From NCBI GenBank assembly GCA_965208835.1, contig OZ242358.1, positions 1,120,001 to 1,184,000 of the forward strand: a DNA stretch of 64,000 bases, given 5' to 3'. Positions 3,029 to 61,769 of this stretch are shown piece by piece (position 1 is the stretch's first letter; every line of letters starts with the position of its first letter). The position numbers and the translations under genes are program-made. Source of the DNA: Candidatus Latescibacterota bacterium (lineage in GTDB: Bacteria > Latescibacterota > UBA2968 > GCA-2709665). A model generated the notes under the pieces. It had not been told where the DNA came from and ran no database searches. It worked only from the letters and a program-made list of their open reading frames with translations.

Positions 3029-3110
3029 CCTACGTGCCAATATAGAGTGAGACAACTCCCCCTCCGAGTTTAATGTCGTACAATGGGCGGAGAGGAGAGG
3101 AGAGGACGAG

Positions 3111-4588: not shown

Positions 4589-4590
4589 AC

Positions 4591-7424: not shown

Positions 7425-7481
7425 GGCTGCGAACCTCACTTTTTCGATTTCAATTTGTAGATGACCTGACCTGCTCCTGTC

Positions 7482-9812: not shown

Positions 9813-9862
9813 ACAGTGTCTTCTCTTGGCGGCGTTAAAACCGTCTAAAAATACAAAAAAAG

Positions 9863-10007
9863 CGTTGCATAACCACGATGTCATCCGGCTCGAAGCGGTC
9901 GACGAATGCGCTGGACTGTGTGCTGACCAGCACCTGGGCATGTCGGCTTACGGAACGAAACAGGGAGGCGATCACGTCCGCCGCGCACGGGTACAGTCCG
10001 ATTTCCG
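9863..10007 (-). pseudogene. Remnant of a paralog of the 11513-12613 ATPase
   Basis: EIGLYPCAADVIASLFRSVSRHAQVLVSTQSSAFVDRFEPDDIVVMQR aligns with ELGLDPCAVDVIATLFRSVSEHAQVLVSTQSSAFVDTFEADDIVVVQR; no start codon seen. Confidence 0.85.
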
Positions 10008-27655: not shown

Positions 27656-28336
27656 TTATTCCTCTTCGCCGATATTCTCCTTCTGGTGCCGCACAATCCG
27701 CCCCTGCACCAGATAGACCGCGTTTTCGGCGATATTGGACGCGTGGTCGCCCATTCGCTCCAGGTGCCGGGAAACCAGAATCAGATGAATCGCACGATCG
27801 ATGGCGTCCGTTTCCGCGCGATAATGGAGATACGTGAGCAACTCCCTGAAAATCTGGTCCCGCAAGCCGTCCACCACGTCGTCTCGCCGGCGCACGTCGT
27901 TCGCCAGGTCCACGTTTCGGTTTACAAACGCGTCGAGCGCATCCTTGACCATGCCCCGGACGAGTTCCGCCATCCTGGGTATATCGATAAGCGGTTTCAG
28001 CGGGGAGGTTCGGTTGAGTACAAAGGCGCGTTGCGCGATATTCACCGACTGATCGTTGATCCTCTCGAGGTCGTAGTTGATCTTCATGACAGTCGCGATC
28101 AAGCGCAGATCCCCGGCCACGGGCTGGGTCACCGCCAGCAGCTTCAGTAAATCCTCCTCAATTGTCACTTCCCATTCATCGATTGTCTTCCCGCCGGAAA
28201 TCACGGCGCCCGCCAGATCATTGTCTCTATCCACCAGACTCTTGACGGCGTGTGCAATGGACTCTTCGACGGCCCCGCCCATCTTCAGCAGCTCGCTCTT
28301 CAGATGCTCCAGCCTCTGATCAAGTGTCCGTTCCAT
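27656..28336 (-). CDS. phoU: Phosphate signalling protein PhoU
   Basis: QPVAGDLR, DLERIND, HLERMGDHASNIAE. Confidence 0.97.
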   Translation of the reverse strand: MERTLDQRLEHLKSELLKMGGAVEESIAHAVKSLVDRDNDLAGAVISGGKTIDEWEVTIEEDLLKLLAVTQPVAGDLRLIATVMKINYDLERINDQSVNIAQRAFVLNRTSPLKPLIDIPRMAELVRGMVKDALDAFVNRNVDLANDVRRRDDVVDGLRDQIFRELLTYLHYRAETDAIDRAIHLILVSRHLERMGDHASNIAENAVYLVQGRIVRHQKENIGEEE

Positions 28337-28387: not shown

Positions 28388-29182
28388 CTAACCGAACCTG
28401 CCCGTCACATAATCCTCGGTCTGCTTCAGCCTGGGATTCGTGAACATCTCTTCGGTCCGCGAGTGTTCCACGAGCGTTCCCAGGTAGAAGAAAGCCGTCC
28501 AGTCCGAAATACGGGAAGCCTGCTGGAGGTTGTGGGTTACAATCGCAATGGTATACTGTTTCTTCAGCTCTTCGATCGTCTCCTCAATTCGTCCGGTCGC
28601 GATGGGGTCGAGCGCCGAACAGGGTTCATCCATCAGTATCACGGAAGGCTCCACGGCGATCGCCCGCGCGATGCAAAGCCGCTGCTGCTGCCCTCCGGAG
28701 AGTCCGAGCGCCGACTCTTCGAGGCGATCCTTGACCTCGTCCCAGAGCGCCGCCGCTCGGAGGCTTCGCTCTGCCACCTCGTCCAGAACGGGCCGCCGAT
28801 TCTCTCCCGCGATTCGCAATCCGTACACCACGTTTTCGTAGATCGACTTGGGGAAGGGATTCGACTTCTGAAACACCATCCCCACCAGCCGTCGAAGTGA
28901 AATCACATCGAAGCCGTGGGCGTAAATGTCCTCACCTTCGATCCGAACCGCGCCTTCAATCCTCACTGTTTCGATCAGGTCGTTTAACCGGTTCATACAT
29001 CGCAGCAGCGTCGACTTACCGCAACCCGACGGCCCGATAAACGCGGTGACGTTATGTCGAGGCACCGTCAGGCTGACATCGTGCAATGCCTGGGCTTCAC
29101 TGTAGTACAGGCTCAGAGACTCGACTTCGACAACCGGATTCTCAATTTCCGAGTTATCCCGCGCCGTTGTTTCCGCGTCCAT
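28388..29182 (-). CDS. pstB: Phosphate ABC transporter ATPase PstB
   Basis: [42 protein letters not shown]. Confidence 0.98.
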
Positions 29183-29264: not shown

Positions 29265-30869
29265 TTACAGACCGATCTTCTGGTATCGTTTGCGCAAACG
29301 GGACCGGACCTGGATCGCGGTCAGGTTCAGTGCGAGTACGATGAACATCAGAAGCAGGGTTGTGGTATAGACCATCGGACGGGCCGCCTCCACGTTGGGC
29401 GACTGGAAGCCGACGTCAAAGATGTGGAAACCCAGGTGCATGAACTTACGCTCCAGGTGGAAAAAAGGCCAGGCGCCATCCACGGGCAGCGTAGGCGCAA
29501 GCTTGACCACGCCCGTAATCATCAACGGCGCCACTTCCCCCGCGCCCCTGGCCACCACGAGAACGATACCCGTCAAAATGCCCGGCAGCGCCGCGGGAAG
29601 GACCACCCGCCAGATGGTCTGAAACTGGGTGGCGCCCAGCGCAAGCGAGCCCTCCCGTACATCTCCGGGAACGGACGCCAGGGCCTCCTCCGAAGCCACA
29701 ATCATTACCGGTACGGTCAGAAGAGCCAGGGTCAGCGACGCCCAGAGGATCCCGCCGGTGCCGAACGTGGGGGCGGGCAACGCCTCCGGAAAGAAAAGCC
29801 GGTCCAGGTTGCCGCCGACTCCGTATACGAAGAATCCCAGACCGAACATTCCGAAGACAATCGAAGGCACTCCCGCGAGGTTGTTCACTGCGATCCGGAT
29901 CGCCCGAACAAGCGGACCCTGGCGGGCATATTCCCGCAGGTAAAGTGCCGCCATCACCCCGAACGGCACGGCCGCCAAACTCATCAGAATGACCATCATT
30001 ACGGTACCGAAGATCGCGGGGAACACGCCGCCTTCGGTGTTGGATTCGCGAGGTTCGGCAGACAGGAATTCCCAGACCCGATCCAGGTACACACCCGTCT
30101 TGCCCAAGGCGCTCAGACTGTTCGGCCGATACGCGCGTACGACGTCCGCAACCGCCACCCGTCGTATCTCCCCGCCCGCCAGCCGGACATCCAGCTGCGG
30201 GACTTCGCTTTCGGTCCTCAGTCGGTTCAGCTCGGCTGCGAGAGATTCGTACCGCTTCCAGTATTTGCGGTTTTTCGCGTCGAGTTGAGATACCTGTTCC
30301 TGCCGCGTGTCCGGAGCCAGTTCAAGCCTTTTCTTTTCAAGGCGAAGCCGCTCGATACGCCGGCTGAGTTCCGATATGGCGTTGTGCTCGATGTCGCGGA
30401 CCTGATCCAGAAGGGCGTTCGTTTGCAGCAACTGCTTCTGAAACGCCGCCCAGCCGGCCGAACCGCCTCCGGCCACCTTGTCTTCGCCCTCGTACACGCT
30501 GTCAAGAAAGCCGAACAGTTGTCCCCATTCCCGCCGCTCGAATATTACCGCGTCAACAGGCAGTGTTCGTTCCAGTATCCGTGACTCGTCGACCCACCTG
30601 AAGTCAACGCCGTACGCGTCCCGGTTCGCCACCTTCAATTGGACCCGGTATTCCCCGTCGCGGTCGGGGATCTCCTGCCGGTCCCAGATCTGCCCCATCA
30701 CGAGGGCGCCGCCGTTGAGACGAAGCGCCGTCAGTTCGGAAGGCCAGAAATAACCCAGTCCGTTATATACGACCAGGCCGATCAATCCCACGATCATCAG
30801 GACGCAGAAGGCGAGCGCGCCGCCCGTCAGCCAGATATACGCCTGCCCTGACTTCCAGAAACCGTTCAT
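29265..30869 (-). CDS. pstA: Phosphate ABC permease PstA (long form)
   Basis: [39 protein letters not shown]. Confidence 0.96.
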
Positions 30870-30913
30870 CAATTCACTCCAGACCCGCTTTGCGGGCAAT
30901 CCGGGCGCGGAAC

Positions 30914-33166
30914 CTATATCCTGCTGTACCGTTCGCGGAGCCGTTGCCGCACGATTTCCGCTAGGGTGTTGACGACGAACGTCACTGCCGCAAGCAGTAC
31001 GCCGGTCAGAAAGAGTATACGGTAGAGGGTGCCCTCATGCGGCGCCTCGGGAATTTCCACGGCAATGTTGGCCGACATGGTGCGCATCCCGTTGAAGATG
31101 CTCCAGTCCATAATGGGGGTATTTCCGGTGGCCATGAGGACAATCATCGTTTCGCCGACCGCCCGTCCGAAGCCAATCATCGTGGCGGAAAAAATGCCCG
31201 GGCTGGCCGTGGGGAGTACCACGCGAACGGCCGTCTGCCACGGCGTTGCGCCCAGTGCCAGGGATCCGGCCCTCAGGTGCGAAGGTACGCTTGTCAGCGC
31301 GTCTTCACAGATTGTATAGATGATGGGGATCACGGCAAAACCCATCGCGAAACCTACAACCAGGCAGTTCCGCTGGTCATAGCGGGTATCTGCGGAATCC
31401 GCCAGCCAGCGCTGGAAATCGCCTCCCCAGAGCGCGCCCTCCATCCAGGGCCCGAGCACCAGAGCCAGCCAGATACCCAGGAGAGACACCAACACGTAGA
31501 ACACCTCAGGTCCCGGCAGCCGGTTCTTCAGCTGGCCGGGCAGCCTGGACCAGATCCAGGAAGCGGAGATTATCGTCAGCGCCACAGTCGGCAACAGCAA
31601 CAGGACCCCCACTACCTGGCGATCCAGCAATGGCGCCAGCCAGAGACCACCCAGAAACCCGAGAATCACGCTTGGCAGCGACGCCATTAACTCCACCGTG
31701 GGTTTGACCACGTTTCGCACTCGCGGATGGGCGAACTCGGACGTATAGATGGCGGCGAGTACCGCCAGTGGCAGTGCGAAAAACATCGCGTAAAATGTCC
31801 CCTTCGCCGTGCCGTACGCCAGAGGGATTATACTCAATTTGGGCTCGAACTCGTCGGTACCTCCGGTGGACTGCCAGACAAACTCGGGTTCGGTATATCC
31901 CTCGTACCAGACCTTGCCGAACAACGTCTTGAACGTTACTTCGGGATGCGGATTGGACAACCGATAGTGGTTCAACCGTCCGTCGCCGTCCAGGCACAGG
32001 AACCCGTCGGCCTTGGGTGCAAACGTCAATCCGGTTACGTTCGATCCACTCGCCACGCTGAAGAACGTCTGTGCGGACGTCATGTGATGCAGCATCACGT
32101 GTCCGCCGGCGCTGCCCGTCAGAAACTGTTTGTCGCGCGCGGATGGCGCGATGGCGCTCACCGCCGCGCGATGCGAACGAAAGGCGTGGATCTTGCGAAA
32201 TGACGCGAAGACACTGCTGTCGGGACCGCGTACCGGAAACCATGCGCTGACCTGACCGCCGGCGTCGCCCACAACCACCGATACGTCGCCAAGTACAAAC
32301 GCGAGGGCCGTAATCGCCCGGTCCGAAGCACGAAAACGCTGTACGAGGGGCGGCGGCGCCTTGAGGTCCGTTATGTCCCAGCAATAAACTTCTCCGCGAT
32401 CCGTGCCGGCCAGAAGAAGCCGACCGTTTCCGTCCACCAGCACGGCTGTTGGCCTGCCGTCGAGCTCAGCCGTCAGGTCGTAAGCATACGTCTCGAGTTT
32501 CCCTCCGCCCAGCAGGGTCCTCTTTTGCGCCATCCCCACCACCAGCAGCCGTTCCGACGCCGTGATCCCCGCCGCGGTCGACCGACGCTCCCCGTCGTTT
32601 CGATATGCAACCCGGGTGACGGGTTCACCTTCCGGGTCCAGCGCCACGTTAACCTGAATGTCCAACTCTGGCGTGACAAAACGTCTGCCTTCCGGGTAAG
32701 TCACACGGTAGTTGACCTTAACCGCGACAACGCGACCGTCCGACATACCCAGGCCGAGGTATCCGTCCGTCAGCGATGGGCACACCGACACCACGCGGCG
32801 ATCCTGAAAGATGTCGCCGCGTTCCCGACGAATGGTCTCACCCGTTGCCAGACGGATGAAATCGATCCCTTCCGGCCGCACCAGATACGCAACTTCGCGA
32901 TATGGATCGGCGCCTGCTTCCAGCGGGCTTTGATCCTGACTGCCGTCCACGGTGTGGCTGCTCACGATCGTAGCAGGCGCCGGCGAGAGGAAGAGCGGAT
33001 AGGCTTCCCGCAACACAAATGCCAGTATGCCCAGCACAACCAGGATCACGCCCACACCACCCACGGCGATCATCCATCGGCCAACACGGTCCATTGTACG
33101 GGCCGCTTGCGTAATGCCCGGCAGGGTTCCGGACTTCTCTGCTTTTGTGTCATTCGGTTGCGCCAT
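30914..33166 (-). CDS. pstC: Phosphate ABC permease PstC with WD40-like periplasmic insertion
   Basis: GKVWYEGY...EFEPKLS, KPTVELMASLPSV, GRAVGETMIVLMATGN. Confidence 0.94.
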   Translation of the reverse strand: MAQPNDTKAEKSGTLPGITQAARTMDRVGRWMIAVGGVGVILVVLGILAFVLREAYPLFLSPAPATIVSSHTVDGSQDQSPLEAGADPYREVAYLVRPEGIDFIRLATGETIRRERGDIFQDRRVVSVCPSLTDGYLGLGMSDGRVVAVKVNYRVTYPEGRRFVTPELDIQVNVALDPEGEPVTRVAYRNDGERRSTAAGITASERLLVVGMAQKRTLLGGGKLETYAYDLTAELDGRPTAVLVDGNGRLLLAGTDRGEVYCWDITDLKAPPPLVQRFRASDRAITALAFVLGDVSVVVGDAGGQVSAWFPVRGPDSSVFASFRKIHAFRSHRAAVSAIAPSARDKQFLTGSAGGHVMLHHMTSAQTFFSVASGSNVTGLTFAPKADGFLCLDGDGRLNHYRLSNPHPEVTFKTLFGKVWYEGYTEPEFVWQSTGGTDEFEPKLSIIPLAYGTAKGTFYAMFFALPLAVLAAIYTSEFAHPRVRNVVKPTVELMASLPSVILGFLGGLWLAPLLDRQVVGVLLLLPTVALTIISASWIWSRLPGQLKNRLPGPEVFYVLVSLLGIWLALVLGPWMEGALWGGDFQRWLADSADTRYDQRNCLVVGFAMGFAVIPIIYTICEDALTSVPSHLRAGSLALGATPWQTAVRVVLPTASPGIFSATMIGFGRAVGETMIVLMATGNTPIMDWSIFNGMRTMSANIAVEIPEAPHEGTLYRILFLTGVLLAAVTFVVNTLAEIVRQRLRERYSRI

Positions 33167-33219: not shown

Positions 33220-34197
33220 CTACATGCCGTCCGCTTCGAGCTTCGCCAGTTCTTCTTCTGCGACTTCAAATGGTACCGGCATGTAACCATCCTTGATTGC
33301 GACTTCCTGACCCTCTTTCGAAAAAATGTACCTGCAGAACTCTCGCACCATTGGGTCGAGCGGCCTGCCAGGTGCCTTGTTAATGTAGATAAACAAAAAC
33401 CGGCCGAGCGGATAGGTGCCGTCGAGGACATTCTCCATGCTGGCGTCACTGTATCCATCCGAGGGATCATCCGCGAGAGGTACCACACGCACGTCCGACG
33501 TCCTGTATCCGATTCCGCTGTAACCGATTCCGAACCGGTCTTCCGCGACTCCCTGCACGACGGAAGCCGATCCGGGCTGTTCCTTGACCTCATCCTTGAA
33601 ATCGCCCTTGGAAAGGGCGTTCTTCTTGAAGAAACCATACGTGCCGGACGCAGAATTCCGACCGTACATGCTGATCAGCGCCATTGCGTGATCGCCGGTC
33701 CAACCCGCTTCACTCCAACGTTGTATGTCGTCCGGATGCCCTCGTCGGCGTGTCTTCGAAAAAATCGCATCCACCTGCTGCAGTGTCAATCCTCTAACGG
33801 GATTGTCCTTGTTGACGAAGACCGCCAGGGCATCGAGCGCAGTCCGCAACGGCGTGGGCGGGTACCCGAACGCCTGCTCGAACTTGTCCACCTCCGTGGC
33901 CTTCATCGCGCGTGACATCGGCCCGAACTGCGCAGTGCCTTCGATCAGCGCGGGCGGCGCCGTACTGGACCCCTTGCCTTCAATCTGGACGTTCACGGCC
34001 GGATAGTACTTGCGAAAGCCCTCAAGCCACAGCGCCATCAGGTTGTTCATGGTATCCGATCCGATGCTGCTGGCGCTACCCGAAATTCCTCGCACTTTCG
34101 TGTAAGCCGGAATTCGCGGATCGACCTCAAGCGTCTGTGCCTGGGCCGGAACCACGGTGACAATCAGCGAAATTACAACGACAATAGTACGCATCAT
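33220..34197 (-). CDS. pstS: Phosphate-binding protein PstS
   Basis: SIGSDTM, EGKGSSTAPPAL, GRNSASGTY, GYSGIGY. Confidence 0.96.
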   Translation of the reverse strand: MMRTIVVVISLIVTVVPAQAQTLEVDPRIPAYTKVRGISGSASSIGSDTMNNLMALWLEGFRKYYPAVNVQIEGKGSSTAPPALIEGTAQFGPMSRAMKATEVDKFEQAFGYPPTPLRTALDALAVFVNKDNPVRGLTLQQVDAIFSKTRRRGHPDDIQRWSEAGWTGDHAMALISMYGRNSASGTYGFFKKNALSKGDFKDEVKEQPGSASVVQGVAEDRFGIGYSGIGYRTSDVRVVPLADDPSDGYSDASMENVLDGTYPLGRFLFIYINKAPGRPLDPMVREFCRYIFSKEGQEVAIKDGYMPVPFEVAEEELAKLEADGM

Positions 34198-34377: not shown

Positions 34378-35352
34378 TTAGAATCTGTAGCACACCGTCA
34401 TCCGGGGAATCACTTCGGTATCTGCGTCCGAGGACCGGTTTATCGTCGCCACCACATTGGGCATGATGTGGATGTTCCTGGCAGGCACGACGTCGACTCC
34501 GCCAATAATCATGTACTCCTCGTCCTGCTCCGTGCTCCGGTTTGGATCGAAAAAGTCCAGGCGCCCGAATACATCGACCCCGGGTTTCACGTTGACGGCG
34601 CCGAAGGCGGAGACGCCTCGAATCTGTAAGTCGTCGCCTGCCAGCGCTTTTCTATTATTTCGGACGAATCCCTCTAAACCGAAACGGATGTTCTCGACGG
34701 ACGTACCCAGCATCCCGGCTAATGTGACGCGGTCTTTTCCTCCGGGTTTGCCTTCCCAGTCGAAGTAGACCGTGGCTTCAACGATGTCCGCGGGTTTCAG
34801 ATGAAGCAGGGAGTACACTTTCTTTCCGTTGTCCGCCTCCGGACGCTGGCCGCTGCCGTTTCCGAACATCAGATGGGCGTTCACTCTGCCTGCACCGTCC
34901 AACTTGCCCTTGAATCCAACTCCGATGTCCGCGGAAGAACCGATCTTGCGCTTGTCCATGATTGTCTTTTCGATTGATCGGTAACCCCATATTCGCTCGG
35001 AAACATTCCAGGTGGGCGTGCCGAACAGCCCCATATATACCGTCCGTCCGTTTGAACGGTATCGCAAATAACCGTGTTTCACGAACGGCCTCATCTTGTC
35101 CTCGCCGCCAAATCCCGCATCGTTTGCTTCGTAGCGCACCCGTCCGGACCAGCGGTCATTCCATTTGAGGTCGTAGGTCAGATAGATCCTTCGGAATTTG
35201 AAACCGTTTTCGTTCTTGTCCGTTCCGGCGACAACGAAATAATAATCGCCGAAGGCAACCCCTTTAATTTTGCCTTCGGCGCCCTCCAAAGACCCGAAAA
35301 GACCCAGACTCAACAACGCGGCGATTCCCAGGACAATCACCTTCATCGGCAT
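34378..35352 (-). CDS. Outer-membrane porin heading the pst operon (OprO/P-like role inferred)
   Basis: Signal peptide, FKFRRIYLTYD, PFVKHGYL, amphipathic strands, C-terminal Phe. Confidence 0.8.
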   Translation of the reverse strand: MPMKVIVLGIAALLSLGLFGSLEGAEGKIKGVAFGDYYFVVAGTDKNENGFKFRRIYLTYDLKWNDRWSGRVRYEANDAGFGGEDKMRPFVKHGYLRYRSNGRTVYMGLFGTPTWNVSERIWGYRSIEKTIMDKRKIGSSADIGVGFKGKLDGAGRVNAHLMFGNGSGQRPEADNGKKVYSLLHLKPADIVEATVYFDWEGKPGGKDRVTLAGMLGTSVENIRFGLEGFVRNNRKALAGDDLQIRGVSAFGAVNVKPGVDVFGRLDFFDPNRSTEQDEEYMIIGGVDVVPARNIHIMPNVVATINRSSDADTEVIPRMTVCYRF

Positions 35353-35519
35353 AGCTCCTCCCCGTATTGGCGGCTAATCGGCCCGGACTTCCTTCCAGGC
35401 GGTACTTGCGTTTTCCCAGATTTCTCGCACCGACGCGGCGACTCGACTGCCAGGGCTGGAGCGCGGTTCCGTCGACGTCGGGATAATTAAATTTGAATGT
35501 ATCAATTCAGGTTGGTCCA

Positions 35520-35575
35520 AATATGCGGCCCTTCAGTTACGAAATGGTCACTCTTGTGTTACAAAATGGTTACGA
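35520..35575 (-). promoter_or_regulatory. Pho-box-like array and -10 for porin-pstSCAB-phoU
   Basis: GTTAC/GTCAC/GTTAC/GTTAC at 35536, 35547, 35558, 35569 (exact 11-bp period); CATATT 10 bp downstream on the minus strand. Confidence 0.8.
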
Positions 35576-35871
35576 TGTCGGGTCCTGGCGTCCCGCGGTG
35601 GAACCGCGCTGCGTTTCTGCGCCGGTTCATCCCATCTGGCGCCGTTGCGGAGGGATATCACTTCAGCGCGCCGTCGGTCTTTCTTGTCTTTTGCATCGGT
35701 TCAACGTATTCTTATACCAACAACTTATGCTCGATTTGGGATTGGCGTACGCCACCTTTCTCCGTCAACGGGGCGGTAGAGCGGGTGAAAGCGGAATCGT
35801 CGTTGGGCTTCACGAATTGAAACAGCTGTCCGGAGCGTACATCCCGGGCGAGCTCTGATGGATAACCAGGT

Positions 35872-37407
35872 ATGAAAAGCAAGGTATGTACACTGCGTCT
35901 GCCGGCATCGGTCAATCCACGCAGCGTATGGAACGAGGCCGTCGGCTCCCATTCCTGCGAACCGATGGACGACACAGTGCACGTCCAGACCTTTTTCGAC
36001 ACCTTCGACTGGCGCCTCTTCAACAGGAACCTGGTACTGTTACATGAAAACGACCGTTACCTTCTCTACAGCCTGCCGGACCGTGAAACCGTCGCATCGC
36101 TCAGCCTGCCGCGCGGAACCGGACCGGTATACAGCACGGATTTTCCCGAGGGACCACTGAAGGAAATCCTTCGGGCGCATTTGAGCGTACGGGCGCTCTT
36201 GCCACTCGCGCGCGCAAGAACCCGCAGGCAGACCGTGCGCGTTCTGAACCGGAACGAAAAAACCGTTGTTGTCGCAAGGCTCGAACAGGCCAGGGTGGCG
36301 GACGCCGCGCGTAACGGACAACCGCTCAATACGGTGGCGCTGCGGCCGGTCCGTGGATATGAGAAACATCTGCGACGGCTGAACCGGTCCCTGCGTGACG
36401 CCGGCGCGGAACCCCAGACCGAAGACCTGTTCCACGCAGCCACGCGGGCGGCCGGCAGGAAACCGGGAGACTATACCTCGAAACTTACTATCGTGCTGGA
36501 GCCCGACCTGAACGGCGCAGAGGCCGCGAGGCGGATTCTGGGGCACCTATTAAGGACGATCAGGCGCAACGAAGCGGGCATTAAGGAGGACATCGATACC
36601 GAATTCCTTCACGATTTCAGGGTGGGCATCCGGCGTACCCGATCGGCGCTCAGCCAGATCAAATCCGTTCTTCCGGAAGTCCCCCTCGGCCGCTTCCGCA
36701 AGGACTTTACATATCTAGGAAAACTCACCAACCGCCTTCGCGATCTGGACGTCGCCCTTCTCAAACAGGAGACGTACCGGTCTCTTCTGCCTGGATATCT
36801 GCGCTCACGGCTGGATCCGCTATTCGAATCCCTGCGGGCGGAACGTACGGAAGAACATCGTCGGCTGGTCGCCGCCCTGGACGGCGCCCGGTACCGGAAA
36901 ATCGCCGCGGACTGGGAGGCGTTTCTGAAAGGCCGGCGGGAGTCCGTTTCGCCGGACAATGCGGAAGCACCTGCGAAAGGGCTGGCGCAGAGGTTTATTG
37001 GCAAGAGATACGGTCGCGTGATCGAACTGGGAGCCGCGATTGATGCGTCCACGCCGGACGCCGACCTGCACCGGCTTCGGATCGAGTGCAAGAAACTGCG
37101 ATACCTCCTCGAGTTTTTCTCGTCGCTTTTTCCTGCTGAAGAGATCCGCATGATTGTCGACCACCTCAAGAGCCTGCAGGACAACCTGGGCGACTTTAAC
37201 GACGCTTCCGTTCAACAGGCCGACCTGAAAAAATACCTGCGTGCGTTGCCCTCGGAAAAAACTCATCCGGAAACCTTCGCCGCCATCGGCGGGCTCATCG
37301 GCTGCCTTTACCGCGAGCAGCAAAACGTCCGAGCGGCGTTTTCGAAGACCTTCGCGGAGTTCAACCGGGCGGAGGTTGCCGCCACGTTCCGACGCCTGTT
37401 CGCCTGA
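35872..37407 (+). CDS. CHAD-domain polyphosphate-binding protein
   Basis: FFDTFDWRL N-domain; LHDFRVGIRRTRS, RDLDV, LHRLRIECKKLRY, LQDNLGDFND. Confidence 0.93.
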   Translation: MKSKVCTLRLPASVNPRSVWNEAVGSHSCEPMDDTVHVQTFFDTFDWRLFNRNLVLLHENDRYLLYSLPDRETVASLSLPRGTGPVYSTDFPEGPLKEILRAHLSVRALLPLARARTRRQTVRVLNRNEKTVVVARLEQARVADAARNGQPLNTVALRPVRGYEKHLRRLNRSLRDAGAEPQTEDLFHAATRAAGRKPGDYTSKLTIVLEPDLNGAEAARRILGHLLRTIRRNEAGIKEDIDTEFLHDFRVGIRRTRSALSQIKSVLPEVPLGRFRKDFTYLGKLTNRLRDLDVALLKQETYRSLLPGYLRSRLDPLFESLRAERTEEHRRLVAALDGARYRKIAADWEAFLKGRRESVSPDNAEAPAKGLAQRFIGKRYGRVIELGAAIDASTPDADLHRLRIECKKLRYLLEFFSSLFPAEEIRMIVDHLKSLQDNLGDFNDASVQQADLKKYLRALPSEKTHPETFAAIGGLIGCLYREQQNVRAAFSKTFAEFNRAEVAATFRRLFA

Positions 37408-37620
37408 CGGGAGAAAGCCAACCTGGATTCGTCGTTTTTTGGTGACACAAAACCGTATATACGCCAGTATATAAACACGATTTGACTTCGGATTACCAGG
37501 ATACTTCAGGTCACTGGACGCGAACTGCAAAAACGTCGTTTCGGACGACCTTTATGCCCCGTTTCGGGAGTCTTCGTCGCGTCACCGCGTTGCTGTCTTT
37601 TTTGAATTGGGGCTGATTTC

Positions 37621-38370
37621 ATGGCAACAGTCGCCCTTTACAACATCAAGGGCGGGGTGGGGAAGACCGCTGCGGCGGTAAACCTGGCCTACCTCGCCGC
37701 GCGCGATGGCGCACAGACCATTCTGTTTGATCTGGATCCCCAGGGATCGGCGGCGTTCTACTTTCGCATCAAACCCTCAAGAAAACTCCCCGGGCGAAAA
37801 TTTCTTCGCGGGGGGCGAAGGATAGAGAAACGCATACGCGGTACCGACTACGAAAACCTGGACCTGCTTCCGTCAAACCTGTCGTTCAGAAACCTGGACA
37901 CGACGCTGAGTAAGCTCAAGGGCTCCCCAAAGCGGCTCCGTCGTATACTGAAACCCTATCGCAAGACATACGACTTCATCTTTCTCGACTGTCCCCCGGG
38001 CATCGGCCTGGTGTCGGAAAACATGCTCTTTGCATCCGACATCGTGCTGGTGCCCTGTATTCCAACCACGTTATCCATGCGTACCTATGACCAGCTGGTG
38101 CGGTTCTTCGGATCCAAAGGCCGGGACGTCTCCCGGATCTACCCGTTCTTCGCCATGGTCGAAAAACGGAAACGAATGCACAGCGAACATCTGGCTGCCG
38201 GGAGGGAACGGGAACACCGATTTCTGGATACGCAGATTCCCTACGCATCGGAAGTCGAAAAAATGGGCATCCGCCGGGAACCGGTTCCATGTTTCGCTCC
38301 GGGCTCGCCTGCCGCGAACGCGTATCAGGATCTCTGGCTTGAACTGAAGGCGATCGTGCAGAGCTGCTGA
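37621..38370 (+). CDS. ParA/MinD-family ATPase
   Basis: KGGVGKT deviant Walker A, DLDPQG, LDCPPG. Confidence 0.93.
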   Translation: MATVALYNIKGGVGKTAAAVNLAYLAARDGAQTILFDLDPQGSAAFYFRIKPSRKLPGRKFLRGGRRIEKRIRGTDYENLDLLPSNLSFRNLDTTLSKLKGSPKRLRRILKPYRKTYDFIFLDCPPGIGLVSENMLFASDIVLVPCIPTTLSMRTYDQLVRFFGSKGRDVSRIYPFFAMVEKRKRMHSEHLAAGREREHRFLDTQIPYASEVEKMGIRREPVPCFAPGSPAANAYQDLWLELKAIVQSC

Positions 38371-38507
38371 AAGGCGCCTGCGAAATTCGTCAAACCCCCG
38401 AGCAACAATGACTTGCAAGCGCGATTCCGATTGACTGAGGCATTGTGTTGGCTTATCTTGGCGCTTTCCGGATGTCCATGGCGTAGCTCAACCACGAGAA
38501 TCGCAGT

Positions 38508-40619
38508 ATGAAACTGGACGATCCAAAACTGTATACCAACCGGGAAATTTCCTGGCTTCGTTTTAATGAACGAGTGCTCGAGGAAGCCCGGGACCCGAGG
38601 AATCCTCTGCTGGAGAGGGTGAAATTCCTCGCCATCGTGGCAAACAACCTGGACGAGTTCTTCGAGATCCGCGTTGCAGGATTGCTGCAGCAGATGGAAG
38701 CCGGGGTTCCCGATGCCGGTCCCGACGGGCTGTTGCCCGAAGAGCTGTACGAAGCCGTTTCCACTGAAGCCCACCGGATGGTCGGTGAACAATATGCCTG
38801 CTGGAACGACGAGCTGTTGCCCGCGCTGAAAGAGGCCGATGTGCATATCCGTTCGTTGCAGGAACTCAATGCCGCTGAACAGGAATTCATCCGGGACTAC
38901 TGGCTGGATGAACTGCATCCGGTCATCACGCCCCTCACCGTCAACCCGGCCCATCCTTTTCCACGCGTGGTGAACAAGTCGCTTTGCCTGGCCGTATCGC
39001 TCAAGGACAGCGAGGGCGACACCCTGTTCGGGGTCGTTACGGTTCCGCGCGTGCTGCCCCGTCTCATCCGTCTGCCCAGAGAAGACGAGGTCCGGCGCGT
39101 GGATTACGTGTTTCTGGCGGACCTCGTACGCGCGCACATCCCCGAGCTTTACCGCGGTTATGAGATACTGGGCACTGCCGCGTTTCGTATCACGCGCAAC
39201 AGCGACCTCTACCTCGATGAAGAAGAAGCCGACGACCTTCTCCTGGCCATCGAAGATGAACTCAAACGCAGACGCAAGGGCGATACGGTACGGCTGGAAA
39301 TCGACGCGGCGGCGCCTAAACAGATCGAACGGAGGCTGCGGGCGATTTATCATCTTCGCGAAAAACAGGTCTACCGCGTCAACGGACCGGTCAATCTCAA
39401 TCGCCTGATGATGCTCTATGCGGCCACGAGACGTCCGGACCTGAAGGATGCGCCGTACCATCCGGCGGAATACCCCTTCGCCGAAGATCTCGACCAGCTC
39501 TTCGCCGAGATCCGGCAACGGGACATCCTGCTGCACCATCCATACGACTCGTTTTATCCGGTCGTTCAGTTTATTCAGTCCGCCGCGCGGGACCCGGACG
39601 TATTGGCCATTAAACAGACTCTTTATCGTACGACCGAAGACTCTCCCATTATGGATGCGCTGCTCAAAGCTGCGGAGGCGGGCAAAGAGGTTACCGTAAT
39701 TGTGGAACTCAAGGCCCGGTTCGACGAGGCTTCCAATATCCGATGGGCTCGGCAGCTGCAGGATGCCGGCGTATACGTCGCGTACGGCGTGGTCGGCCTA
39801 AAAACGCACTGCAAGCTCTCCATGCTGGTCCGTCGTGAGTCGGATGGTCTTCGCCGGTACGCCCACATCGGTACGGGCAACTACAACGCTACGACGGCGC
39901 GGATATATACGGATCTGGGTCTGATGACTGCCAGGGAAGACATCACCAGCGACGTGGCCGAGGTATTCAACCTGCTCACCACCCAATCTGAACGACCTGA
40001 AGTCAGGAAGCTGCTTGTCGCGCCATTCAATATGATGGATTCCATTCTGGCCAAAATCGATCGGGAGATTGAACACGCCAGGGCCGGACGACCCGCCCGC
40101 ATCGTCTGCAAAATGAACTCGCTTCAGGATGCAAGGGTCGCGCGAGCGCTCTACAAGGCTTCCCAGAATGGCGTTGACGTCGACCTGATCGTCCGTGGGA
40201 TTTGCTGTATTCGTCCCGGCATTCCCGGTATCAGCGATCGCATTCGCGTAAGAAGCATCGTCGGGCGTTATCTCGAGCACAGCCGCATTTACATGTTCGA
40301 AAACGGATCCAAGCCCGAGATATATACCGGGAGCGCGGACTGGATGCCTCGCAATCTCCGGCGACGTGTGGAAATCCTCTGCCCCATCGAAGATCCGGTA
40401 CTCATCCGGAAGATTCAGTCCTGGATTCTCTCCCCGTGCCTGGCGGATAATATCAAAGCGCGTGAAGTTCTGCCGGACGGCGACCATCGCCGCGTGGAAA
40501 CCACGAACGGACGGACACCCATTTCGTCACAGGAGATTCTGATGGGGCTGGCCAGAGGAGAACAGTTCGAGATTCCGGACTTCTTCGCCGCCAACGGGCC
40601 GGCCCAAACCTCCGCTTGA
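38508..40619 (+). CDS. ppk1: Polyphosphate kinase 1
   Basis: NREISWLRFNERVL, LLHHPYDSF, KQTLYRT, ELKARFDE, KTHCK, GTGNYN, SIVGRYLEHSR. Confidence 0.98.
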   Translation: MKLDDPKLYTNREISWLRFNERVLEEARDPRNPLLERVKFLAIVANNLDEFFEIRVAGLLQQMEAGVPDAGPDGLLPEELYEAVSTEAHRMVGEQYACWNDELLPALKEADVHIRSLQELNAAEQEFIRDYWLDELHPVITPLTVNPAHPFPRVVNKSLCLAVSLKDSEGDTLFGVVTVPRVLPRLIRLPREDEVRRVDYVFLADLVRAHIPELYRGYEILGTAAFRITRNSDLYLDEEEADDLLLAIEDELKRRRKGDTVRLEIDAAAPKQIERRLRAIYHLREKQVYRVNGPVNLNRLMMLYAATRRPDLKDAPYHPAEYPFAEDLDQLFAEIRQRDILLHHPYDSFYPVVQFIQSAARDPDVLAIKQTLYRTTEDSPIMDALLKAAEAGKEVTVIVELKARFDEASNIRWARQLQDAGVYVAYGVVGLKTHCKLSMLVRRESDGLRRYAHIGTGNYNATTARIYTDLGLMTAREDITSDVAEVFNLLTTQSERPEVRKLLVAPFNMMDSILAKIDREIEHARAGRPARIVCKMNSLQDARVARALYKASQNGVDVDLIVRGICCIRPGIPGISDRIRVRSIVGRYLEHSRIYMFENGSKPEIYTGSADWMPRNLRRRVEILCPIEDPVLIRKIQSWILSPCLADNIKAREVLPDGDHRRVETTNGRTPISSQEILMGLARGEQFEIPDFFAANGPAQTSA

Positions 40620-40679: not shown

Positions 40680-40843
40680 AGAAGCTGTCTTAAAATCCCC
40701 AGCGGTCTTCGCGCGGCTGCAAAAGCGCCGGTCGGCGTTGGTCAAATCCACCCGTATAGGCAAATAGGGGCGGATTTTCCCGCCTTGACCGCCAATTTTT
40801 CGCTCGCGCTCGGGAACTCACCGGTAATTTTAAAACAGCTTCT
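40680..40843 (+). mobile_element. MITE family A, copy 1
   Basis: TIRs agaagctgtcttaaaat / attttaaaacagcttct; nearly identical to 43741-43928; overlaps the phoR stop. Confidence 0.85.
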
Positions 40844-42281
40844 AAGCAATCGGCAATGTGAAGCCGAACGTCGAGCCCGAACCGAGTACGCTCTTTGCGT
40901 AAACCCGTTCTCCGTGGGATTCGATGATATGACGGACGATCGAGAGCCCCAGACCGGTTCCACCCAGACTCCTCGAACGTCCCTTTTCCACACGGTAAAA
41001 CCGTTCGAACACGCGCGGCAGCGAATCCGAAGGAATTCCGATACCGTTATCCACGACCTCCAGCACCACAACTCCGGCCGGCCTTGAAACAGAGTCCGCG
41101 CGGTCGGCTTCCGCCGCAAGAACAAACCCCGGCGTGTTGTCCGAGCCCGCGACATCCTCGTCCTTGCCGAACCGCCTGACAGCAACCCGCACCCTTCCGC
41201 CCCGCGGTGTATATTTCACCGCATTGTCCAGCAGGTTTACCACAGCCTGCTCAATCAACCTCGGGTCGCCTCGAACCGACAGTTCATCCGGAATCGCCAC
41301 CAAAACCGCAATGCCCTTGTCGGCGGCCTGTTGTCGGATTGAGTCGTACGCCCGGTCTACCGCCCGCCGGATTGCGAAGTCCTGCATTTCAACCGTCAGA
41401 CGGTCGGACTGCAGCCGTGAGAGGTCCAGCAGGTCTTCCAGCAGCAGCAGTAGCCGGTCTGAATGCGCGAGTATGGTCTGCACAAATCGATCGGCGCTGG
41501 CGCGGTCTTCAAGCGCGCCGTCGGCCAGCGTATCCGCGCACCCTTTGATGGCCGTCAGCGGGGTACGTATTTCATGGGATACATTGGCCACGAAATCCTT
41601 GCGCGCACGCTCCAGCCGATGCAATTCCGTCGTGTCGTAGAAAACCGCCACCACACCCATTCCCGCGCCCTCCCTGCGAACCGGTCCGACGTGTACGTCG
41701 AAGTGTCGTTCGGGCATACCTGAGGTCGTCATCGGATGCGTCAGGGCCTCTCCGGTTTTCAGGGTATGTTCGATCGCCTCCTGGACCCCTACGTCGCGGA
41801 TCATTTCCACCGGGGGTCGGCCTGCCGTGGTGGAAGTCACGCCGAAGAAGCGCTCGAAGGTGCGGTTGGTCAGCAGAACCCGGCCGTCGCGTCCCGTAAC
41901 AAGGATCCCCGCGGTAATGTCCGCGAGGATCGTCTCAAGTCGCGATTTTTCTCCGAGGATGTCCGCGATCCGGTCCCGGATCTGCTGCCGCGTTGAATCC
42001 AGTGCCCTTGCGAGATCCCTGATTTCTCGCGGCGAGGCGTCGGACGGAACCCTTTCATCGAAGTCGCCCGCCCCTATGGAGCGCGCGACCCCGGTCAGTT
42101 TCCGCAATGGCCGCGACACCGATCGGGAGACACTATAGGTCAGCAGCAGCGCCAGGGCCAGCCCCAGCAAAGTGGCCAGCAGGATTTCGTGAACCGTACG
42201 GTTTACGTACAGATGCACGGTTACCGTGGCAATAGCGATCACCGCCGCACAGAGCAGCATCAGCCGCCAATGCAGTCGCAT
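40842..42281 (-). CDS. phoR: Sensor histidine kinase PhoR (TM-HAMP-PAS-HisKA-HATPase)
   Basis: DFVANVSHEIRTPLT, NLLDNAVKYT, DNGIGIP, FERFYRV, GGTGLGL; Pho cluster context. Confidence 0.9.
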   Translation of the reverse strand: MRLHWRLMLLCAAVIAIATVTVHLYVNRTVHEILLATLLGLALALLLTYSVSRSVSRPLRKLTGVARSIGAGDFDERVPSDASPREIRDLARALDSTRQQIRDRIADILGEKSRLETILADITAGILVTGRDGRVLLTNRTFERFFGVTSTTAGRPPVEMIRDVGVQEAIEHTLKTGEALTHPMTTSGMPERHFDVHVGPVRREGAGMGVVAVFYDTTELHRLERARKDFVANVSHEIRTPLTAIKGCADTLADGALEDRASADRFVQTILAHSDRLLLLLEDLLDLSRLQSDRLTVEMQDFAIRRAVDRAYDSIRQQAADKGIAVLVAIPDELSVRGDPRLIEQAVVNLLDNAVKYTPRGGRVRVAVRRFGKDEDVAGSDNTPGFVLAAEADRADSVSRPAGVVVLEVVDNGIGIPSDSLPRVFERFYRVEKGRSRSLGGTGLGLSIVRHIIESHGERVYAKSVLGSGSTFGFTLPIA

Positions 42282-43729
42282 CTCACGCGCTTTCCTCCGG
42301 CGAACCCGTTGTATTCGTCAAGGAACCACTCGGCCTGTTTGGTCATAAAGACGCCGATCTCCTCGCCCTTGAAGCCGAATGATATCATTAGCCTTCCAAA
42401 ATACATGTCCGTAATGAGGACTTCCATGTTGATCGTCTGGTCGTCGATCCACGCGGCCGAGGCCTGGCACTCGTATTCGACGCCTGGGATCGAGCCAATC
42501 TGCTCGCCGAAGTAGTTGCGTTGCGGGAACCTGCCGGACAGCATGCGCCCGATACCGAACCGCAGCACGTTGTCGCCCTGACCGTTGGTGTACTCCCACG
42601 TGCCCCGGTCGTCTTCGAAGGACAGGCGCATGCGGGTGATCCCCATCGGGTTGTCCTCCAAAACATACCAGGTTCCGTGGACGTCCGAGGCCGCCGCCGA
42701 GTCGCGTCCTCCTGGGACCGGCAGGACTTCCAGCCGGGTGATTGTATCGGAGAGTTCCGCATGTGCGTCGGGATCCTCCGGAAGCGGCGCGTCCGAAAGG
42801 TGGGGAAGGAGTTCCTCGCGCACCACGGTGGAAATGCCGCTGCCGGACGGCGCGCCCTGCGTGTCGGAGATGCACGCGAACAGAAACGCCCGGTCTGGAA
42901 AACAAACCGCGATCTGACTACCCATCCCGCGGAACGAGAATCCGTTCTCATTCTCACGCCAGATCTGATACCCGTATCCGCAATTGCCTCGGATGGCGTT
43001 GTCGATCTGTCTGGCGGTCGCGGCTCTCACGTACTCCTCGGGCAGGACCCTTTCGTCGCCCCACGTGCCTCCGTTCATACATGCCAGCGCGACTCTGGCC
43101 AGATCGCGAAGCGTGCAGATGACACCCGACCCGCCCCACGACACGCCCTCGGGCGTACGGATGCACCACGCATCGGCAGAGAAACCGATCCGATCCAGGA
43201 AACGCGGTCGCATATAGTCCAGAAAGGGCATGCCTGAAAGCCGTTCGACCACGGCCGTTAGCACCACGGTTGCCGCCGTGTCGTAAGAAAAGATCGTTCC
43301 GGGAGGATGAGAGGGGGGTCGGTTGAAGAAGGTCCATACCCAGTCAGGATCGTCGCGTGTATAGGTAGTTCGCGAATGGGGGGTCGACATCGTCAGGAGA
43401 TCCCGGACAGTCGAGGCTGAAAGCCACGGATGAAGGTCTTCGGGCACTTTGTCCGGAAAGTAGTCCGCGACCCGATCATCGAGGGCGAGCATGCCTTCGT
43501 CGATCATCAGTCCGACAGCCAGCGCCACGAAGCTCTTGCTGACGGAATACATACGGTGCTTGCGCTCAGCCGTCCACGGGGCCCAGTAACCCTCAGCCGC
43601 GATTTTGTTGTGAAGCGCAAGCAGGAACCCGTGCATGCAAATGCGCTCAGAATCGACCCGCTTGAGGAAATTCAGGACCGCCCGTGAGGGTATCCCCAGG
43701 CTCTCAGATGAAGGCGCCAATGTAAACAT
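42260..43729 (-). CDS. Serine hydrolase (class C beta-lactamase / NylB-like)
   Basis: YSVSKS (SxxK), TVRDLLTM, PGTIFSY, YGYQIW, FRGMGSQ. Confidence 0.9.
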   Translation of the reverse strand: MFTLAPSSESLGIPSRAVLNFLKRVDSERICMHGFLLALHNKIAAEGYWAPWTAERKHRMYSVSKSFVALAVGLMIDEGMLALDDRVADYFPDKVPEDLHPWLSASTVRDLLTMSTPHSRTTYTRDDPDWVWTFFNRPPSHPPGTIFSYDTAATVVLTAVVERLSGMPFLDYMRPRFLDRIGFSADAWCIRTPEGVSWGGSGVICTLRDLARVALACMNGGTWGDERVLPEEYVRAATARQIDNAIRGNCGYGYQIWRENENGFSFRGMGSQIAVCFPDRAFLFACISDTQGAPSGSGISTVVREELLPHLSDAPLPEDPDAHAELSDTITRLEVLPVPGGRDSAAASDVHGTWYVLEDNPMGITRMRLSFEDDRGTWEYTNGQGDNVLRFGIGRMLSGRFPQRNYFGEQIGSIPGVEYECQASAAWIDDQTINMEVLITDMYFGRLMISFGFKGEEIGVFMTKQAEWFLDEYNGFAGGKRVRCDCIGG

Positions 43730-43740
43730 CCCAATCCCCC

Positions 43741-43928
43741 AGAAGCTGTCTTAAAATTCCCAGCGGTCTTCGCGCGGCTGCAAAAGCGCCGGTCGGCGTT
43801 GGTCAAACCCACCCGTCTTACGAGATCGAGGCTGCGCTTGCTCGCCTCTCATAGGCGGGTTCTCCCGCCTTGACCGCCACTTCTTCGCTCGCGCTCGGGA
43901 GCTCACCGGTAATTTTAAAACAGCTTCT
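43741..43928 (+). mobile_element. MITE family A, copy 2
   Basis: Same TIRs and arms as copy 1 with a longer central loop; overlaps the phoB stop. Confidence 0.85.
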
Positions 43929-44632
43929 CAGTGTTCTTCCATGAATCGGTAACCTACGCCTCGAACCGTCTCCACCATTTCGCTGGCGCCGCCCAGCTTC
44001 TCCCGAAGTCGCCGGATATGCGTATCCACGGTCCGGCCGTAACCGGCGTAATCGTAACCCCAGACGGTGTTCAGCAGTTCTTCGCGGGACTGCACGCGCC
44101 CCCTGCGCTCTGCCAGCGTAGCCAACAGACTGAATTCGGTGGATGTCAACGCCAGTACGTCGCCGTCCACGGTTACCCTGTGGGCGGCTTTGTCGATGGA
44201 AAGAGGACCGAATGTCATCGCGTCCGCATCCGACTCTTCCCCTACTGAATCCCGCCCTTCCGCCAGCCGCCTCAGGATGGCCTGGATGCGCAGCGTCAGT
44301 TCACGGACGGAAAACGGTTTTACGACATAGTCGTCCGCTCCCAGCTCCAGCCCGACGACACGGTCGACTTCCTCGGCGCGCGCGGTCAGCATGAGAATGG
44401 GCAGGTCCCGGGTTTCTGCATCCTGCTTCAGCATCCTGCAGACTTCCAGCCCGTCCATGCCCGGCAGCATGACGTCCAGTACGACCAGATCGGGAAGCTC
44501 GTTCCGGATCAATTCGAGCGCCGCCTCGCCTGAATCGACGGCAGCCACGGTAAAGCCCGCCTTCTCAAGGTTGTACGAGACGATCTCCTGAATATCGACT
44601 TCGTCTTCAACCACCAGAATGTTGCCTGTCAT
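43928..44632 (-). CDS. phoB: OmpR/PhoB-family response regulator PhoB
   Basis: ILVVEDE, LDVMLPG, GLELGADDY, RTVDTHIRRLREKL, TVRGVGY. Confidence 0.9.
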   Translation of the reverse strand: MTGNILVVEDEVDIQEIVSYNLEKAGFTVAAVDSGEAALELIRNELPDLVVLDVMLPGMDGLEVCRMLKQDAETRDLPILMLTARAEEVDRVVGLELGADDYVVKPFSVRELTLRIQAILRRLAEGRDSVGEESDADAMTFGPLSIDKAAHRVTVDGDVLALTSTEFSLLATLAERRGRVQSREELLNTVWGYDYAGYGRTVDTHIRRLREKLGGASEMVETVRGVGYRFMEEH

Positions 44633-44862
44633 GGATGCCCTCGCATGAGCAACAGTCCCGTCGCCTGCCGGGTATCTGGACGTCAACGCCTCTCCAGTTT
44701 CCAATATACAAAAAGGAACAAGACGGGCAATGCTCCAGTGGCCAGTATTGAGCTACCGGCCGAAATAAACCCCGTTTGCCCACCACGCAGGATATCAACG
44801 AGACAGGAGGACACTCCGAATGATGCGGCGAATGGGTGTATTCATGCTCCCGGGAAAGGAAT

Positions 44863-61643: not shown

Positions 61644-61685
61644 AAAAAACTCACCTTTTGTTTCCAGGTGGGTTTTTTTATTTTT
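61644..61685 (+). terminator. Intrinsic terminator after rpmB
   Basis: aaaaaactcacct-loop-aggtgggttttttattttt. Confidence 0.7.
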
Positions 61686-61769
61686 ATCGACGGCGCGGGC
61701 TCCTGGCGCCAACCCTGCGTGCGTTGTACGGCAATCGGACCGGATATTACCGACGGGAAAGCGCTCTGT

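Follow-up and report, generated by a model that had tools for sequence, protein, structure and literature searches.

A ParA-type ATPase beside polyphosphate genes

Which cargo would a ParA-type ATPase serve if its gene has no parB partner and lies between a gene for a CHAD protein and ppk1, the gene of polyphosphate kinase 1? The question is raised by a stretch of DNA from Candidatus Latescibacterota bacterium (assembly GCA_965208835.1, contig OZ242358.1, positions 1,120,001 to 1,184,000), which was analyzed over its whole length of 64 kb and is called the window here. All coordinates without further label refer to the window, and sizes are given in amino acids (aa). The three genes are:

35872..37407, plus strand: partner CHAD protein (511 aa; Pfam CHAD 199 bits, cut-off 25.6, residues 222-450)
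37621..38370, plus strand: ParA-type ATPase of a CHAD-linked family (249 aa; Pfam AAA_31/CbiA/ParA-type P-loop domains)
38508..40619, plus strand: ppk1, polyphosphate kinase 1 (703 aa; NCBIfam TIGR03705 927 bits, cut-off 466)

The encoded PPK1 contains all four Pfam PP_kinase domains, and the intergenic gaps amount to 213 bp (CHAD to ParA) and 137 bp (ParA to ppk1). An earlier interpretation of the letters alone (the sequence-only reading) had described a ParA with a KGGVGKT motif and without parB between a CHAD protein and ppk1, which is borne out by the open reading frames (ORFs), Pfam and NCBIfam. With Pfam, no ParB domain was found in the called ORFs of at least 90 aa of the window (several of which have no Pfam match at all) and no min genes were found among the called ORFs near the ParA gene. 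We consider the chances about even that the CHAD protein and the ParA together form a two-component ParA-type module for polyphosphate (polyP) granules, in which the CHAD protein would be the component attached to the granule.

Conservation of the CHAD-ParA pair

A scan of contigs with a profile (alignment of 31 family members) yielded at least 600 stretches, at least 592 of which encode a relative of the ParA. All synteny statistics were taken from the best 80 of these at least 592 relatives (48-93% identity) and describe the closest loci. In 74 of the 80 related loci, the ParA match is preceded by a CHAD match on its own strand that ends no more than 300 bp before it, which excludes a chance arrangement. 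Sorted by the phylum named in the record, 14 out of 15 phyla are positive (the only Spirochaetota locus is negative), as are all six unassigned loci. Four loci of Chlorobiota (L029, L046, L055, and L062) carry the pair. The 66 full-length called pairs have a median gap of -1 bp. Overlapping genes account for 34 pairs, the gap does not exceed 30 bp in 57, and it is above 100 bp in a single pair. These loci counts are not phylogenetically independent, as L001-L004 are close to the window and L010, L018, L019, and L020 are close to each other. The nearest loci are metagenome-assembled genomes of Latescibacterota, with L001 encoding a ParA and a PPK1 that are 93% and 96% identical, respectively, to those of the window.

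The sequence-only reading had expected a conserved CHAD-parA-ppk1 synteny. This expectation holds for CHAD and ParA and fails for ppk1, which is present within the fetched flanks (8 kb) in only 12 of the 80 loci, four of them being L001-L004. Of these 12 loci, six have PPK1 upstream of CHAD and five have it downstream of ParA; in the remaining one it lies downstream on the other strand. What is conserved is the CHAD-ParA pair, and the setting with ppk1 and the Pho genes is particular to the lineage. The evolutionary distances of ParA and partner co-vary (r = 0.68-0.72; none of 1000 permutations as high), which is expected for co-inherited neighbours, and this mirror-tree correlation does not resolve which partner domain co-varies with ParA.

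Two loci labelled Methanophagales and Halobacteria archaeon (L074 and L077) contain a bacterial-type CHAD-ParA pair, accompanied by PPK1 or by pst/pho genes. The ParAs of both loci are nested within bacterial ones, and mis-binning or gene transfer is possible.

Identity of the ParA family

The ATPase carries the sequence NIKGGVGKT at residues 8-16, a deviant Walker A motif (KGGxxGK[ST]) with the N-terminal signature lysine. Residues K10, G11, G12, G14, K15, T16, D37, D39, and D123 are invariant in 55 family sequences; we take D37 and D39 (DxD) to be the Walker A' aspartates and D123, which follows a hydrophobic strand, to represent Walker B. By its sequence the protein belongs to the deviant-Walker-A ParA/MinD ATPases, with dimerisation and matrix binding as predicted properties. 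Relatives are abundant: a word-indexed search returned at least 120 proteins at 53-99% identity, and 385 clusters (50% identity) match at E ≤ 1e-30 and 9059 at E ≤ 1e-10, with the exhaustive ParA search covering 1.84 billion representatives.

Among solved structures, the family profile can be aligned from end to end (2-244) with 8ray, annotated as ‘ParA family protein’ (E = 1.4e-34), followed by Helicobacter pylori Soj (E = 1.3e-26) and Thermus Soj (E = 2.3e-23). McdA (6noo, E = 3e-13) and MinD are matched more weakly than these Soj-type structures. At the position of R183, both 8ray and Thermus Soj have an arginine, presumably the one by which Soj binds DNA.

With Soj/ParA proteins as its closest solved structures, and with some sources labelling relatives ‘chromosome partitioning protein’, the ATPase might be taken for an ordinary chromosome or plasmid partition ParA that merely adjoins polyP genes. 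We regard this as extremely improbable. Besides the missing ParB in the window and the recurrent CHAD adjacency, the plasmid ParAs sampled are at most 36.5% identical, apart from a Paracoccus match. No NCBIfam ParA/MinD/RepA/SopA model reaches its cut-off for the window ParA, all scores being far below (ParA_partition NF041546, 80 bits against a cut-off of 180; RepA, 66 against 348; MinD TIGR01968, 39 against 213; BcsQ, 49 against 158). The family also separates in phylogeny. All 94 family rows of a quick IQ-TREE tree (101 rows, with a long-branch warning) fall in one clade (SH-aLRT 99, stem length 4.95) apart from an outgroup of six plasmid ParAs, two of which adjoin a ParB gene, and Escherichia coli MinD, an outgroup that has no named chromosomal Soj, McdA, ParC/PpfA, FlhG, or MipZ. 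The suggestion that these ParAs form one clade is confirmed in this sense, and an orphan (ParB-less) family that is discrete from plasmid ParAs and MinD is supported by these comparisons. A defence-system reading was rejected because the PADLOC match is confined to Walker A.

The partner CHAD protein

The partner consists of an N-terminal domain (residues ~1-205) and a CHAD domain (~206-511). All 55 partners analyzed match Pfam CHAD (PF05235), and their profile matches the CtCHAD structures 3e0s and 6qv7/6qva at positions 201-513 (E ~1e-112). According to the excerpted text of Lorenzo-Orts et al. (PMC6537752), CtCHAD comprises residues 208-522 of the Chlorobium tepidum protein Q8KE09 and was crystallised with polyP, and mutants of His253, Arg256, Arg260, and Arg296 bind polyP more weakly. 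The corresponding partner residues (H247, R250, R254, and R290) are invariant in all 55 sequences. The binding of polyP by CHAD that the sequence-only reading invoked is thus experimentally grounded for a closely matching protein, since CtCHAD binds polyP and the mapped residues are invariant.

The same reading spoke of a CHAD protein, which captures the C-terminal half; the protein is not a plain CHAD protein, having an extra domain that resembles a degenerate CYTH. This N-terminal domain of about 205 residues is conserved (D43, R107, K130, and G162 are invariant) and contains the motifs DTFDWRL and PVRGY. For the window protein it gives no Pfam match at E ≤ 10, none of the 55 members matches CYTH (PF01928) in this domain at E ≤ 0.01, and the ExExK motif does not occur in the alignment of the 55 N-terminal domains. 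Against the stand-alone CYTH neighbours, hhalign shows no similarity (probability 0.2%). When aligned to the CYTH domains fused to ParA, the N-terminal domain reaches a probability of 53% (E = 1.4e-4, 169 columns, with DTFDW aligned to FFDT), and bona fide CYTH domains score the same against this set. Language-model features of residues 1-195 of the orthologue from Methylotuvimicrobium buryatense have CYTH proteins as 29 of the 30 nearest clusters (score 0.92). We read the domain, on mixed evidence, as a degenerate CYTH without ExExK.

Charge and fusions of the ParA

For the family ParAs (n = 80), the median isoelectric point (pI) is 9.5 and the median net charge is +11; the window ParA reaches 9.95 and +16.7. 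Seven outgroup ParA/MinD proteins range between pI 5.1 and 7.1 and between net charges of -9 and 0. At 13 positions, at least 75% of the family has Lys/Arg without conservation in the outgroups (R49, K51, K55, R63, R66, R73, R90, K100, R108, R183, K184, K214, and R219).

Fusion proteins were searched among proteins larger than 436 aa, 150 of which match at E ≤ 1e-30, and their domains were derived from precomputed Pfam annotations among the 120 matches listed:

ParA + CYTH: at least 11 clusters (Pfam)
ParA + CHAD: at least 11 clusters (Pfam)
ParA + sucrose-phosphatase-like HAD: at least 10 clusters (P0274-P0282, P0124)
ParA + SBP_bac_3 solute-binding-like: at least 15 clusters (among P0298-P0321)

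In total, at least 17 ParA-CYTH fusion clusters were found, and 15 of the 17 checked keep ExExK at the start of CYTH. Together with four ‘long’ forms they make up one clade (support 98) beside Acidobacteriota in the IQ-TREE analysis. Seven of the 11 CHAD fusions flagged by Pfam contain complete CHAD and ParA domains, and a clean in-frame transition from the C-terminus of CHAD to the N-terminus of ParA is present in P0290 and P0297 only. Eight of the 11 (P0287, P0289, P0291-P0293, P0296, P0302, and P0329) were set aside as strong evidence for their Arg-rich junctions, which look like frameshifts, and P0350 for its reversed order (ParA first) with a partial CHAD. P0198 is suspect because of an Arg-rich, frameshift-like junction as well. 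One fused HAD domain scores above the cut-off of NCBIfam TIGR02471, and many ParA forms of 440-535 aa bear unnamed C-terminal extensions. The re-wiring of the family by fusion to CYTH, sucrose-phosphatase-like and solute-binding-like domains may point to a broader toolkit of adaptor-coupled ParAs for metabolic assemblies.

These data bear on an alternative in which the ParA acts on the granule itself: with polyP as its direct ligand, it would join the CHAD protein in a coat or tether regulated by ATP. Such a structure would govern whether granules fuse, grow, admit enzymes or stay fixed to DNA, and no travelling gradient would be involved. The shift in pI and charge relative to the outgroups and the 13 family-specific basic positions argue for such a coat, as do the covalent linkage of ParA to CHAD or CYTH in some lineages and a partner that lacks a long N-terminal stimulating peptide. 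On the other side, R183 and K184 are found at positions where Soj-type proteins have arginine. We judge this alternative unlikely, though worth keeping in view.

Proposed mechanism

In the two-component reading, the CHAD protein would bind the polyP granule via its CHAD domain, and the ParA would be a Walker-type ATPase that resembles Soj, dimerises and has an exceptionally basic surface. ATP-bound dimers would attach to a polyanionic matrix, most likely the nucleoid, and contact with the granule-bound CHAD protein would lead to ATP hydrolysis and release. The ParA depletion zones formed in this way would space the granules and share them between daughter cells, as McdAB does for carboxysomes. 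The contact between ParA and partner, the matrix and the positioning outcome are the steps that we infer. More tentatively, and as something we hold possible rather than probable, the pair may represent a widespread ATP-driven polyP-granule system, occurring in at least 14 phyla, which spaces, partitions or remodels an inorganic polymer condensate and for which polyP itself is possibly the matrix.

Several points weigh against granule positioning by this ParA. The contact between CHAD protein and ParA is, as said, an inferred one. Granule spacing in Synechococcus elongatus needs no ParA (excerpted text of PMC13556221) and in Pseudomonas aeruginosa it depends on AlgP (PMC9239181), so a ParA is not generally required for it. 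ParA partners typically carry a long, charged, disordered N-terminal peptide (PMC10241942). The CHAD partners differ from them in having no such peptide, as the tail preceding their first conserved strand has a median length of 6 residues with about one Lys/Arg. The net charge of the ParA could mean direct binding of polyP rather than of DNA, and the fusions to CYTH, sucrose-phosphatase-like phosphatase and SBP_bac_3 domains fit a tether or enzyme-linked role better than a two-component ratchet. In the window itself, the 213-bp spacer disrupts the usual translational coupling of CHAD and parA. Finally, the two genes also occur apart. Six of the 80 loci have no CHAD neighbour (L023, L064, L068, L070, L071, and L076), and Pfam assigns their upstream ORFs to Pirin, OmpA, a GGDEF regulator, MFS and inositol monophosphatase, with one ORF giving no hit. 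Conversely, plasmid pTs417 of Ca. Thiodictyon syntrophicum (L089, 4881-6467) encodes a partner-like CHAD protein with no ParA adjoining.

The pTs417 CHAD gene is located near pstB-pstS, and its match covers 92% of the window CHAD protein. Three of the six loci without CHAD (L068, L071, and L076) constitute a Methylococcaceae subclade that lost the CHAD neighbour and is nested among CHAD-linked Methylococcaceae. In two of these, a glycogen phosphorylase gene directly follows the ParA gene (L068, 8831-11338; L076, 8793-11297).

Gene neighbourhood of the pair

For the wider neighbourhood, 1032 called neighbour proteins from the 80 loci were clustered and the representatives scanned. The recurrent neighbours are:

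SixA-like histidine phosphatase: 16 of 80 loci
stand-alone CYTH: 12 of 80 loci
PPK2: 11 of 80 loci (15 genes)
PhoR-like: 10 of 80 loci
PhoB-like: 10 of 80 loci
PstB: 9 of 80 loci
PstC/A: 9 of 80 loci
PstS: 7 of 80 loci
metallophosphoesterase: 6 of 80 loci
PPX: 5 of 80 loci
RNase T-like: 5 of 80 loci

At least one of PPK1, PPK2, PPX, and CYTH is present in 28 loci, and pst/pho genes are found near the pair in 19. As a rough guide to chance, a given single-copy gene falls into a random 13-kb stretch of a 4-Mb genome with a frequency of ~0.3%. At least three Paracoccus replicons are annotated with the order hypothetical-CHAD-‘AAA family ATPase’-CYTH-NUDIX and junctions of 1 to 5 bp. In P. marcusii, the CHAD-ParA module lies ~1.5 kb downstream of pstA-pstB-phoU-phoB.

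An upstream ORF of 62-67 aa is annotated in all three Paracoccus species (L081, 6299-9651; L090, 3636-7070; L091, 3570-7531). In P. liaowanqingii, an IS256 transposase comes after a shortened ATPase gene.

With such neighbours, the ATPase could serve a complex for polyP or triphosphate turnover (CYTH, NUDIX, SixA-like, PPK2, PPX) as a subunit for its regulation or assembly, with no spatial role. The stand-alone CYTH genes that adjoin the pair in 12 of the 80 loci are intact (EIERKF motif), ExExK is retained in nearly all ParA-CYTH fusions, genes for PPK2, PPX and SixA-like proteins recur nearby, and the SIMIBI/ParA-MinD class includes ATPases that do not position anything. Nevertheless, we hold such a subunit to be quite improbable: in its signature lysine, Walker A' and Walker B, and in aligning like Soj from end to end, the protein agrees with dimerising positioning ATPases, the near-constant neighbour is a non-enzymatic CHAD protein whose CYTH-like domain has no ExExK, and the enzyme neighbours differ between loci.

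Phosphate-response setting in the window

In the window, the module and ppk1 are flanked on both sides by genes of the phosphate response:

27656..28336, minus strand: phoU (Pfam PhoU; NCBIfam TIGR02135 207 bits, cut-off 130)
28388..29182, minus strand: pstB (NCBIfam TIGR00972 395 bits, cut-off 343)
29265..30899, minus strand: pstA, long form of 544 aa (NCBIfam TIGR00974 253 bits, cut-off 193)
30914..33166, minus strand: pstC, long form of 750 aa (NCBIfam TIGR02138 220 bits, cut-off 196)
33220..34197, minus strand: pstS (NCBIfam TIGR02136 238 bits, cut-off 207)
34378..35352, minus strand: phosphate-selective porin O/P-like gene (Pfam Porin_O_P 22.9 bits, cut-off 20.9, partial match)
35536..35573, plus strand: Pho-box-like array of four GTYAC direct repeats with a spacing of exactly 11 bp, in the divergent pst/CHAD intergenic region (519 bp)
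37416..37613, no strand assigned: spacer of ~195 bp between CHAD and parA, from an alignment with relatives, absent from the four closest ones
40842..42281, minus strand: phoR-like sensor histidine kinase (HAMP-PAS-HisKA-HATPase by Pfam; NCBIfam PnpS 367 bits, cut-off 400; PhoR 271 bits, cut-off 334)
43928..44704, minus strand: phoB-like OmpR-type response regulator (Pfam; NCBIfam PhoB TIGR02154 263 bits, cut-off 296)

CHAD, parA and ppk1 are co-oriented, divergent from porin-pstS-pstC-pstA-pstB-phoU and convergent with the phoR-like and phoB-like genes. This layout agrees with the sequence-only reading, with the reservation that kinase and regulator are named phoR-like and phoB-like only, because all their best NCBIfam matches stay below the equivalog cut-offs. 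The three-repeat GTYAC pattern has two overlapping matches against 0.03 expected (100 shuffles), and among 88 loci only L001 and L003 share the array, which they carry in the stretch separating the porin match from the CHAD match. PhoB sites are built from direct repeats with an 11-bp period. The array is thus a candidate PhoB site, and membership in the Pho regulon is plausible from the sequence. Because the module and ppk1 lie between pst-phoU and the phoR/phoB-like genes, behind this array, granule synthesis and granule organisation would be induced jointly by the phosphate response in this genome.

The 213-bp gap between CHAD and ParA makes the window an outlier due to the insertion of ~195 bp, unlike the four closest relatives, in which the gap at this site is 18 bp. 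The spacer has a GC content of 0.48 compared with ~0.58 for its surroundings. Neither the window nor the 80 loci contain a second copy of it, Rfam gave no match, and scans of the spacer for promoters and terminators gave results no better than shuffled sequences. A small ORF upstream of CHAD (35493-35858) was rejected as a third component, as relatives match it only piecewise and in differing frames.

The pstC and pstA products (750 and 544 aa) far exceed the usual length. Residues ~230-420 of PstC give weak WD40/beta-propeller-like Pfam matches, every one below cut-off, and long pstC matches also occur in loci L030 and L050. A gene for a protein with a beta-lactamase fold (42260-43729) sits between the phoR-like and phoB-like genes and overlaps the start of the kinase gene by 22 bp. 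Further away, the window encodes a metallophosphoesterase-HAD fusion protein (49819-51129) and a 744-aa protein composed of FolC (above the NCBIfam cut-off) and a C-terminal RimK-like ATP-grasp domain (61668-63902). Positions 85-9941 form a mobile/defence cluster with an IS21 IstB-like ATPase, a NACHT-domain protein, an rve integrase and a type I restriction-modification system (S, M, and R subunits).

Comparison with known systems

The organization of the pair resembles that of McdA/McdB in that a ParB-less ParA-type ATPase is encoded beside a protein binding a non-DNA cargo, and the proposed roles (a matrix-bound ATPase and a cargo-bound stimulator) are the same. In contrast to McdA/McdB, a granule of inorganic polymer would serve as the cargo, a folded CYTH-like/CHAD protein stands in place of a McdB-type partner, the ParA is strongly basic and matches McdA less well (6noo, E = 3e-13) than the Soj-type 8ray (1e-34), and the neighbours are polyP/Pho genes. 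With the type Ib Soj/ParA-Spo0J/ParB systems the ATPase shares its size, fold class, full-length alignment and deviant Walker A motif with signature lysine. It differs in having no ParB or parS, in scoring below every NCBIfam partition model, in its separate clade and in a partner that is polyP-binding as judged from the match to CtCHAD. MinD is more distant, with the window ParA far below the TIGR01968 cut-off and E. coli MinD outside the clade.

As for the partner, CtCHAD and the ‘phosin’ CHAD proteins are among its closest known counterparts, and the match to CtCHAD (E ~1e-112) spans the last 310 residues. In the excerpted text of PMC6537752, only the CHAD fragment 208-522 is studied, and neither a role of the N-terminal domain nor a downstream ParA is mentioned there. 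The succession of a CYTH-like domain and CHAD is shared with YgiF-type CYTH-CHAD inorganic triphosphatases, from which the partner differs by the lack of a Pfam CYTH match (0 of 55) and of ExExK in the N-terminal domain. No ParA gene adjoins a canonical gene of this type (‘CYTH and CHAD’) in Paraburkholderia. AlgP of P. aeruginosa and the PhaM/PhaF/PhaH tethers space storage granules via a link to DNA; they are single DNA-binding proteins whose ATP dependence is given as ‘unknown’ in a 2025 review (PMC13052382), whereas the CHAD-ParA module includes an ATPase.

Previous reports and implications

The gene order folD-ppk-parA-CHAD of Acidithiobacillus was printed in 2019 (PMC6416229) and 2024 (PMC10892726), where this ParA is described only as a plasmid or chromosome partition protein. 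No proposal of a ParA for polyP granules was found in the freely accessible full texts that were searched. The remark of the sequence-only reading that it knew of no characterised system of this kind stands for these texts, with the Acidithiobacillus order printed without a function. Neither ‘polyphosphate’ nor ‘CHAD’ occurs in a survey and a review of ParA/MinD cargos (PMC10241942, PMC11407121). In its excerpted text, a 2025 review lists only AlgP for polyP granules, with an ATP dependence given as ‘unknown’ and the Caulobacter proteins as unidentified (PMC13052382). A 2026 mBio paper, in the part available, calls the mechanism of granule placement undefined in E. coli and Caulobacter and McdAB-independent in Synechococcus (PMC13556221), and the accessible passages of PMC11894788 state it as unknown or ParA-independent.

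Judged by its sequence and synteny, CHAD-ParA appears to be the best candidate so far for an energy-driven organiser of polyP granules. Culturable hosts of the module are Methylotuvimicrobium buryatense 5G (L050), Paracoccus marcusii and P. aestuarii, to which Chlorobiaceae (L046, L055), the family of the species from which CtCHAD was derived, and, based on the literature, Acidithiobacillus can be added. If the two-component reading is true, an inorganic polymer would join the cargos of ParA-type ATPases, and a role would be found for the N-terminal half, so far uncharacterised, of the protein that supplied the crystallised CHAD domain. The conserved CHAD-ParA module offers a concrete candidate for how bacteria place and inherit their polyP granules.

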